Shown piece after piece: positions 92-39,977 of a DNA stretch of 64,000 nucleotides. The stretch comes from a virus. A model generated the notes under the pieces. That model was not told the DNA's origin. It searched no databases and saw only the letters and a list, made by a program, of their open reading frames with translations. The DNA is taken from IMG/VR virus record IMGVR_UViG_3300044825_002278, positions 39,910-103,909 of that record; one strand, 5' to 3'. Positions within the stretch are counted from its first letter, which is position 1, and every line of letters starts with the position of its first letter. The position numbers and the translations under genes were made by a program.

Positions 92-186
92 TATGGATAA
101 ATTCGCGGTTATCCATATGTAAACAAAATAACTTTACCCCCCTTTTGTTTGATGCCGCGAACATCTCCAATTGTGGGGGTTTTTTA
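92..186 (+). promoter_or_regulatory. Structured leader RNA: two hairpins with complementary loops and a terminator-like stem
   Basis: TATGGATAA/TTATCCATA stem (92-117) with loop TTCGCGG; GATG-CCGCGAA-CATC (151-165); ACCCCC/GGGGGT stem followed by a T-run. Confidence 0.55.
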
Positions 187-5615: not shown

Positions 5616-5914
5616 GTTCCTACGAATTAAAATTTACAGAACTTTTAAAACAACACAACGAGTCGTTAAAAAAGGAAATAAAAGACGAGCCAAGAAAATC
5701 CTTACCTCATATTGCCGTACTGACTTTTAAAATAGATGTTAGAGAACTCGACAATGATGGTATAATGGGAGAATTTGTTTTAAGCGGGAATGAGCTTAAA
5801 AAATATGGCATGAGCAATAAAGCCCAAATTTTTGTAAAAGGGCAATCGGAAGCAGATTGTATTAAAAAAGTTAAAAACATATTGGAGAATATAGATGCAA
5901 GAGCCAGAAACTGA
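5612..5914 (+). CDS. Hypothetical protein
   Basis: ORF coupled to neighbours. Confidence 0.65.
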   Translation: MSSYELKFTELLKQHNESLKKEIKDEPRKSLPHIAVLTFKIDVRELDNDGIMGEFVLSGNELKKYGMSNKAQIFVKGQSEADCIKKVKNILENIDARARN

Positions 5915-14103: not shown

Positions 14104-14131
14104 TCAAAATAAATCCACTTATTGTTTATTT

Positions 14132-14179
14132 TGTGTATTATACTGTGTAACAATTACATTTTTTGCGAGATACAGTATG
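14132..14179 (+). promoter_or_regulatory. Promoter-like motif TGTGTATTATA plus a hairpin sequestering the endonuclease start codon
   Basis: ATACTGTGT (14140-14148) pairs with ATACAGTAT (14170-14178), with one G-U pair, covering the ATG at 14177. Confidence 0.6.
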
Positions 14180-15001
14180 AAACCAAGTAAAAAACAATTA
14201 CAAGATCAATTAAATCAGGGAAAAACACTGAAGCAAATAGCAGAATATTTCGGCAAGAAATCTGCGTCATCTATTAAAAACTGGTTATCTAATTATAATC
14301 TTATTTCTAATAAGGTTTGTAAGCCTTGGACAGAGGAAGAAGATAGGTTTTTGGTAGAAAATTACCCAAAGTATGGATATGAATATTGTGGAAAAAAACT
14401 TGGTAGATCAAAAGATTCGATATATCAAAGATGTCAAAAAATTGATATTTGTAAAAATAGTAAATGGCAATCTTTAGATAGGGATTGGCTTATAAAATGT
14501 TATGAGGAAGACAATTTGAGCATTAAAAATATAGCAAGTCAAATAGATGGTATAGAATTCTGGGATGTCTACGCGGCTCTAATACATTATGGAATAAAAA
14601 TAAACAAATCTGGCAAATACTATGGAAAAGATCATCATAATTGGTCTGGATATCAAGAAATTTCAAATACTCATTGGTTGTCAATAAAACAATCTGCAAA
14701 AAAGGGAAGGTCTAGAGAGATAGATTTTGATATAACTATAGAGGAAGCATGGGAATTATTTATAGGGCAAAATCGTCAATGCGCTTTATCTGGAGTAGAA
14801 ATTAAATTTTCTCCAACCGGAAGTAATAGGTATCAAAAAACTACAGCATCGTTAGATAGAATAGATTCTTCAAAAGGATATTTTTTAAATAATTGCCAAT
14901 GGGTTCATAAAAATATCAACATGATGAAACAATCTTTATCCGATAAAGAGTTCATAGATTGGTGTTCTAAAGTTTGTAATTACAATCAAGGTAAAAAATA
15001 A
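14177..15001 (+). CDS. Free-standing HNH/His-Me-type homing endonuclease with N-terminal HTH/Myb-like repeats
   Basis: TLKQIAEYFG, PWTEEEDRFL, CALSG...ASLDRIDSSKGY..NCQWVHKNINMMK. Confidence 0.85.
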   Translation: MKPSKKQLQDQLNQGKTLKQIAEYFGKKSASSIKNWLSNYNLISNKVCKPWTEEEDRFLVENYPKYGYEYCGKKLGRSKDSIYQRCQKIDICKNSKWQSLDRDWLIKCYEEDNLSIKNIASQIDGIEFWDVYAALIHYGIKINKSGKYYGKDHHNWSGYQEISNTHWLSIKQSAKKGRSREIDFDITIEEAWELFIGQNRQCALSGVEIKFSPTGSNRYQKTTASLDRIDSSKGYFLNNCQWVHKNINMMKQSLSDKEFIDWCSKVCNYNQGKK

Positions 15002-39083: not shown

Positions 39084-39977
39084 TTAAGTATCTCCAGTGG
39101 CACATGGAGCTGGTGGGCATTCACCGGCACATTTTTCTGGACAACCAACCCATACTGGAATCCATTCGTAGTTAATTCTAGCTGCCACAACCCAAATTAA
39201 ATCTTTAACATATTCTTGATAAAGACTTGGATCTCTATTGGTTATCGTGCATTTTTCTTGGCGTTTTTTGGGCCATTTAATCGCATTGGTTGGTGGCGAT
39301 TGAGTACCGGTATCTCTAAAAACCTTAATATTAAAATATGTTGGGCTACATGGAGTAGATGGGGCAACAATAGCTTGCTCGGCAACACCGCATATCATAT
39401 GGTGTCCCATACTCCAAACTTTTCTGTCGCGATCCCATTGAAACGCAACCGGTCCACTTTTCCAAATTCCACGATTACTAGCATATTGCGGGTCCATAGT
39501 AAAAACATCATTACCTTTATAAGGAACTGGCCTATCGCCCAAGTCAGAACCCCATCCACTTAAAACCATTGGTCCTCTATGCTGACTTACTGAAACCTGT
39601 GTAATGCTTGGTCTATTTATTTTTCTAATATTCATATCGCTTCCGCTGTCGCCGGTTCCATTATTCATTACAATTTGATAATCGCATTCAGTTATAAAAG
39701 TTGTTGGGTTTCCATCTAGCCATGTTGAAAAATACGGATCTAACTCAGATCTAGTTGCTCCAAGATGTCCACTATTATACTTTCCGTTGGATCTTGAATC
39801 ACCAACAGGTATTTCAAAACTAGAAACTACACCGCTACGATTTTGTCCACCCCTAACAATTAAAATTGGAGAATAAAGCTGCTCATGTCCTGTAACAGCA
39901 TAATTTGATGGAAATTGTCCTGCGGCAGCAGCAATGTCCGATAAAATCCCATACGATCCACTAATGTCTAACGGCAT
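39084..39977 (-). CDS. Putative tail-tip protein
   Basis: Follows the large tail protein; GP..F.WD..RKVW motif; Cys-rich C-terminus. Confidence 0.55.
   Translation of the reverse strand: MPLDISGSYGILSDIAAAAGQFPSNYAVTGHEQLYSPILIVRGGQNRSGVVSSFEIPVGDSRSNGKYNSGHLGATRSELDPYFSTWLDGNPTTFITECDYQIVMNNGTGDSGSDMNIRKINRPSITQVSVSQHRGPMVLSGWGSDLGDRPVPYKGNDVFTMDPQYASNRGIWKSGPVAFQWDRDRKVWSMGHHMICGVAEQAIVAPSTPCSPTYFNIKVFRDTGTQSPPTNAIKWPKKRQEKCTITNRDPSLYQEYVKDLIWVVAARINYEWIPVWVGCPEKCAGECPPAPCATGDT

Follow-up and report, generated by a model that had tools for sequence, protein, structure and literature searches.

Homing endonuclease genes have to be expressed strongly enough to spread, without harm to the operon that they have invaded. 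How is transcription controlled where such a gene lies directly before a thymidylate synthase gene, and does the RNA in front of the nuclease take part in that control? The question was raised by positions 92 to 186 of a stretch of viral DNA of 64,000 nucleotides (hereafter the window), corresponding to positions 39910 to 103909 of the 103.9-kb IMG/VR virus record IMGVR_UViG_3300044825_002278, which has a G+C content of 37% and a coding share of 86%. An earlier note on this DNA had described two hairpins with complementary loops in these 95 bases and had proposed either a kissing-loop RNA or an attenuator, terminating RNA that reads in from upstream and sparing RNA from a nearby promoter. The modelling described below suggests that the stretch is a real folded RNA leader, probably regulatory and attenuator-like.

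The leader was found to be part of a mobile cassette at 78-1486, made up of a promoter, the leader, an I-TevI-like GIY-YIG nuclease gene, and thyX. By sequence comparison, this cassette has replaced the native thyX start of an uncultivated phage of about 150 kb. The features of the cassette and of the junction in front of it are as follows.

16-69, + strand: 17-codon stub of the original thyX 5' end, matching the thyX starts of the relatives L131 and L132.
78-92, + strand: promoter-like box of the cassette, with the -10 hexamer at 84-89 and no convincing -35.
197-844, + strand: GIY-YIG homing endonuclease, I-TevI-like (Pfam PF01541, E = 4e-9).
837-1484, + strand: thyX of a foreign lineage (Pfam PF02511, E = 1e-43; profile positions 1-187 of 191).

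Upstream of the stub, which is preceded by a native ribosome site, are nrdB, a trypsin-like protease gene, and a tRNA-like RNA. The relatives that share this backbone (L129-L132) carry the protease gene, with or without the tRNA-like gene, and then thyX directly. The tRNA-like element lies just before the start of the window (locus L001, 1309-1427); it is a tRNA-shaped RNA with a long arm replacing the anticodon arm and with a compensatory change in the acceptor stem relative to L131, and it was called neither by ARAGORN nor by Rfam.

The extent of the cassette was apparent from the boundaries of blastn homology. With the related cassette L135, homology covers 78-1486, promoter through thyX, while the stub in front differs. 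It starts at 174 for L134 and at about 190 for the cassettes with 57 to 58% identical nucleases (L133 and L136), and homology with the backbone relatives returns only at about 1383. The leader therefore forms the 5' end of the mobile nuclease-thyX cassette, in which most of thyX was co-converted. The nuclease is 38% identical to T4 I-TevI over residues 1-129 and has 17 close homologues; no Shine-Dalgarno sequence was found for it. A thyX stub precedes the nuclease in every family member. In L133, L136, and L137, the stop of the stub overlaps or abuts the nuclease start, an arrangement of translational coupling, and in P0009 the two are fused in frame into one protein. The thyX and nuclease genes move together in L133-L136. 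The loci upstream of related thyX genes in L121 and L123 contained no nuclease. In the window, the thyX start overlaps the nuclease stop, and thyX has a strong ribosome site within the nuclease gene. A separate promoter for thyX was not seen, and relatives have no terminator before thyX; some read-through of the leader must therefore occur. Beyond the cassette, an ORF at 1472-1882 overlaps the thyX end, is absent from L131 and L132 (homology gap 1487-1863), has no Pfam match, and may be a further inserted nuclease-like gene. That the nuclease resides in a group I intron, as it does in T4 td, was considered and rejected: there was no Rfam intron match, only 125 nt precede the nuclease gene and 0 follow it, and the downstream thyX is complete by Pfam.

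The earlier note had placed a promoter near 80-90, and in silico this was borne out, the -10 box at 84-89 belonging to a recurrent promoter class of the phage. Of the 7 copies of the surrounding 9-mer in the record, 5 are intergenic and precede a gene on the same strand by 39 to 116 nt, and the early promoters of a complete relative (G003) use the identical -10. The hairpin arm of the leader begins at 89/93, just past the -10 box. A near-identical 14-nt box, with one mismatch, is found at 14131-14144, ahead of a second inserted ORF (14177-15001) of 274 amino acids with only weak Myb-like Pfam matches. There, an 11-bp pairing (14138-14148/14170-14180) covers the start codon and takes in the promoter box; such pairing of promoter region and start codon would prevent the translation of read-through RNA only. 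Further sites of the box, 39 to 50 nt upstream of genes, were noted at record positions 5810(-), 35783(+), and 78967(-). At 5810, a 7-bp hairpin begins directly after the -10 box and likewise extends across the likely start site.

Within the leader, every base pairing listed earlier could be found in the letters of the 95-base stretch. The elements relevant to its folding are the following.

89-121, + strand: hairpin 1, with core arms 93-100/109-116 (8 bp) and loop 101-108, formed only in RNA started upstream of about 95.
136-185, + strand: strong intrinsic terminator (fold A), a three-segment hairpin at 136-180 with a GC-rich base, then U6.
102-128, + strand: 5' strand of an alternative long-range helix (102-109, 111-113, and 121-128), 19 bp with 143-161, -14.7 kcal/mol.
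143-161, + strand: 3' strand of the alternative helix; in fold A, these bases make up the upper part of the terminator hairpin.
163-185, + strand: weak alternative hairpin (fold B), with arms 163-169/174-180, before the U-run of the fold A terminator.

The claimed loop match is exact: 102-108 is the reverse complement of 155-161 throughout its seven positions, and the duplex formed by the two 7-nt loops has an energy of -10.5 kcal/mol. The claimed complementarity of 121-128 to 143-150 is also present in the sequence. It had, however, been understated, since 143-161 pairs without a break to 102-109, 111-113, and 121-128, giving 19 bp in all. The second hairpin was described correctly as lying inside a C-run/G-run stem followed by a T-run, except that the T-run is at 180-185 and position 186 is an A; the partners of the C-run (136-142) are 173 and 175-180, and the six T follow at 180-185. 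Its loop at 155-161 was likewise right, but its own stem has only 4 bp (151-154/162-165), making it the apical mini-hairpin (151-165) of the fold A terminator. A two-codon start-stop occurs at 117-122 and is lost in L135, so that there is no leader peptide of note. ARAGORN found no tRNA or tmRNA in the leader, and the comparison with Rfam that the earlier note had suggested gave no match, either at gathering score or at E<=1.

Folds were calculated with ViennaRNA by minimum free energy, constrained folding, and partition functions, pseudoknots not being scored in the energies. The minimum-free-energy fold of 88-196 consisted of hairpin 1 and one extended terminator hairpin at -27.8 kcal/mol (z = -2.98), a stability reached by 1 of 200 shuffles. 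This fold A is composed of hairpin 1 (-9.6 kcal/mol), the terminator hairpin at 136-180 (-15.7 kcal/mol), and U6. Fold B is composed of the 19-bp helix and the weak hairpin at 163-180 (-6.4 kcal/mol), which stands before the U-run of fold A; it takes away the upper two-thirds of the strong terminator hairpin. The two folds are mutually exclusive, and the AUG at 197-199 is unpaired in both. Which of them prevailed depended on where the modelled transcript began.

Start at 78 or at any point upstream of it: 98% of the ensemble in fold A.
Start at 95: a mixture, about one-third fold A and two-thirds fold B.
Start at 96 or 97 (7 to 8 nt after the -10): fold B, 99%.

Hairpin 1 likewise weakened, from -9.6 kcal/mol in its full length to -5.5 in RNA begun at 95 and -1.3 in RNA begun at 96. 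The idea of a two-state attenuator was thus upheld in silico as far as two exclusive folds are concerned, but fold B is not a clean antiterminator, the hairpin of -6.4 kcal/mol being left in place. Similarly, the expectation that RNA from the cassette promoter would lose hairpin 1 and switch to a fold using both loops held for starts at 96 and 97, whereas a start at 95 gave mixed folds. In read-through RNA ending before the G-run is made (60-161), fold B was again the best fold, so that the dependence on transcript origin would require hairpin 1 to work as a kinetic trap. Within fold B, a pseudoknot between the C-run and the G-run is still conceivable. In these computations, the 7-nt loop match would fit a kissing contact and a strand-exchange switch alike.

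As a terminator, fold A has a base of five G-C pairs and one A-U pair with U6 directly after it, i.e., a GC-rich stem plus a U-run, and it ranked 4th of 50 hairpin-plus-T-run sites in the whole 104-kb record. It is not of the compact type with a short loop of 3 to 8 nt, since it is a 45-nt three-segment hairpin with internal loops, and a 4-nt loop is present only in the weak hairpin of fold B. The pairing was compared with chance at several levels. GC-rich 7-mer inverted repeats with a spacer of 20 to 80 nt were observed 12 times in the 104-kb record, compared to 11.8 in block shuffles; the loop match by itself is therefore not beyond chance. When the stems of fold A stayed intact and only the letters that it leaves unpaired were shuffled, 10 of 2000 shuffles produced a competitor no less stable than the actual one, and the terminator stem was displaced to P<0.01 in the 5'-shortened transcript in 0.8% of shuffles; the resulting p-values for the extended pairing and the switch (about 0.005 to 0.01) are post hoc and refer to local shuffles. 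Genome-wide, 4% of GC-matched 65-nt windows folded as well as 97-161. The extended pairing and the fold switch therefore appear to exceed chance, in a suggestive, post hoc sense.

L135 was the only independent homologue found with a leader, which differs at 7 of 122 positions. The core of hairpin 1 and mini-hairpin 2 are unchanged, and both loops are identical in the two sequences, the window and L135. Five of the substitutions fall in the terminator hairpin, and yet the energy of fold A is the same, -15.7 kcal/mol, since the loss of a C-G pair (141/175) is made up for by a G-C pair gained at 148/167. The gain comes from the change at 148, which also disrupts the pairing of 121-128 with 143-150. 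Fold B is weaker by 2.8 kcal/mol in L135 and still dominates for starts at 96 or 97, and its weak hairpin has -4.4 kcal/mol, compared to -6.4 in the window. The L135 leader fold had z = -2.5. Random-substitution simulations for L135 were not significant (p = 0.12, 0.17, and 0.06). In L134, whose nuclease is 95% identical by tblastn, the promoter, hairpin 1, and the strong terminator are missing; there is only a short hairpin with a U-run, placed within a longer stub ORF, and the leader is shared only at 174-199. No leader at all was found in L133, L136, and L137. The leader is accordingly dispensable for the nuclease.

Searches for further copies were negative. No second copy of the leader was found in the record or in five related records, and in the complete relative G003 no leader-like copy follows the promoter box. 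Exact 18- to 20-mers of hairpin 1 matched only unrelated coding DNA, an 18-mer of hairpin 2 had no match in IMG/VR, and hairpin 1 stems with any loop gave 21 matches there, all unrelated and none a leader copy. A query of the collection with the two 7-mers and a gap was too unspecific and returned chance matches. The leaders of other nucleases (from a crAss-like phage, Flavobacterium phage FpV21, and L002) showed no similar fold, and a full-text literature search produced no paper joining kissing loops with homing-endonuclease leaders. That the leader is a member of a widespread, uncatalogued class of kissing-loop leaders of phage homing endonucleases, realized here as a terminator switch that depends on promoter origin, disregards host transcription, and permits the nuclease and thyX only from the cassette's own promoter, is possible but rather unlikely.

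The reading that we favor, tentatively and at a strength just short of probable, is that of a cis-acting leader of the homing-endonuclease cassette, in which folds A and B, chosen by the transcript start, would gate transcription into the nuclease. RNA coming from the upstream nrdB-protease-tRNA-like unit would contain the complete hairpin 1 and adopt fold A, in which the 5' hairpin is followed by the strong intrinsic terminator, 11 nt ahead of the start codon of the nuclease, and would stop there. RNA from the cassette promoter would be missing the 5' arm of the hairpin; in fold B, the upper half of the terminator hairpin would then be taken up in pairing with the loop of hairpin 1, its 3' arm, and an A-rich block, and transcription would continue into the nuclease and thyX. 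This strand exchange would nucleate at the complementary loops (the kissing site). We infer the start site at 96-97, actual termination, and the difference in read-through; the specific switch is a prediction from thermodynamic modeling of two sequences, all of it in silico. Support comes from the predicted ensembles (fold A at 98% with the full hairpin 1, fold B at 99% for 96/97, with -15.7 versus -6.4 kcal/mol before the U-run), from the homology with L135, which sets in precisely at the promoter while the stub ahead of it differs, from the retention of hairpin 1, both loops, and the fold A energy in L135, and from the cassette at 14131-14179, which uses the same promoter box within a pairing over the start codon. 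The mixture of folds from a start at 95, the hairpin that fold B retains before the U-run, the 2.8 kcal/mol by which fold B is weaker in L135, and the single change that breaks the A/U helix there count against it.

An alternative is a constitutive leaky terminator or insulator with a 5' hairpin, the loop complementarity and the second fold being coincidence. In that case, the terminator would simply reduce the transcription reaching a nuclease that may be harmful; hairpin 1 would stabilize the RNA or be idle. The chance frequency of GC-rich 7-mer inverted repeats genome-wide is in line with this, as are the plain 5' terminators of T4 mobE and segF, the retention of only a small hairpin and U-run in L134, and the fact that L135 keeps fold A and weakens fold B. 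However, a 19-bp competitor and a near-complete switch were rare in shuffles that kept fold A, and both loops and the whole of hairpin 1 are unchanged in L135 despite the 7 differences in 122 positions. We consider this explanation possible but rather unlikely. The layout from promoter to terminator is also like that of bacterial small RNAs, and the distance of 90 nt between the two, with no ORF between, would suit a stand-alone small RNA of about 85 to 90 nt, built of a structured 5' part and, beyond an A/U-rich linker, a terminator hairpin ending in a U-tail. Such an RNA would act in trans or as a decoy, the nuclease mRNA arising only by occasional read-through. No target was identified, however, no other copy was found in the genome or its relatives, there was no Rfam match, and most cassettes of the family lack the stretch, so that a small RNA seems improbable.

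The remaining explanations place the function in the DNA or dispense with it. A perfect palindrome of 8 bp, located +4 to +27 relative to the promoter, abuts the -10 box and might be an operator for a repressor or, given its I-TevI-like character, for the nuclease itself. Against this, I-TevI-type proteins bind as monomers to a copy of the homing site, and an operator would not account for the 19-bp match to 143-161. Precedent exists in that I-TevI represses its own late promoter, a documented autorepression (PMC2988022). An operator resembling the homing site was rejected, because the best match to the native thyX starts, 8 of 9 bases, was no better than chance (judged by eye, from a rough hand estimate). 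Overall, an operator appears highly improbable. About the same holds, with an even slighter probability, for non-functional recombination debris, in which a decayed second thyX 5' end would have received a chance insertion. Junctions do vary among family members, L134 sharing only 174-199, and 118-142 aligns weakly to native thyX starts; but 15 of 300 shuffles reached the best score, and a decayed second thyX stub was rejected since this alignment is not significant. In addition, debris is at odds with fold z values of about -3 in the window and -2.5 in L135 and with a terminator among the strongest of the genome.

If the origin-dependent switch that we favor is compared with known systems, a first likeness is to the T-even phages, in which the promoters of nuclease genes sit inside inhibitory RNA structures; I-TevI, I-TevII, I-TevIII, segB, and Aeh1 mobE have leader hairpins with an embedded late or middle promoter (PMC2988022). 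As in those leaders, the promoter of the window's cassette lies at or inside the 5' arm, so that read-through RNA and promoter-started RNA would fold differently; transcripts beginning at the start site placed above would lack part of the inhibitory structure. The aim would also be alike, namely, to restrain a selfish nuclease in a host operon, and as in T4 the nuclease is an I-TevI relative beside a thymidylate synthase gene. In T4, however, control is exerted on translation, by a structure that conceals the ribosome site, whereas the structure that changes in the window is a transcription terminator; sequestration of a ribosome site or start codon was not found here, there being no Shine-Dalgarno sequence and the start codon being unpaired. 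Terminators at the entry of free-standing nuclease genes, thought to limit nuclease transcripts, are shared with T4 mobE and segF, where 5' terminators stop about 30% of transcripts (PMC2988022). Unlike that of the window, the mobE and segF terminators are located within the coding region, and no alternative fold is known for them. The downstream essential gene in T4 has its own promoter, whereas thyX in the window appears to depend on read-through.

A second likeness is to RNA switches. Riboswitches of the guanidine-IV/mepA type are kissing-loop transcriptional riboswitches, and with these and with classical attenuators the leader shares 7-nt complementary loops beside an intrinsic terminator and mutually exclusive folds. 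It differs from them in that its hairpin 2 is part of the terminator and not a competitor of it, and neither an Rfam match nor a ligand pocket was identified that would assign it to a curated family or point to a sensing step. The leader of about 110 nt is probably a variant of the phage T4 type of nuclease control, acting here on termination and not on the ribosome site. If this is true, a terminator decided by the origin of the transcript would constitute a second, transcriptional solution beside the masking of ribosome sites in T4, and it would explain how thyX, a metabolic gene, can be carried by a cassette from one phage to another whose upstream context differs.
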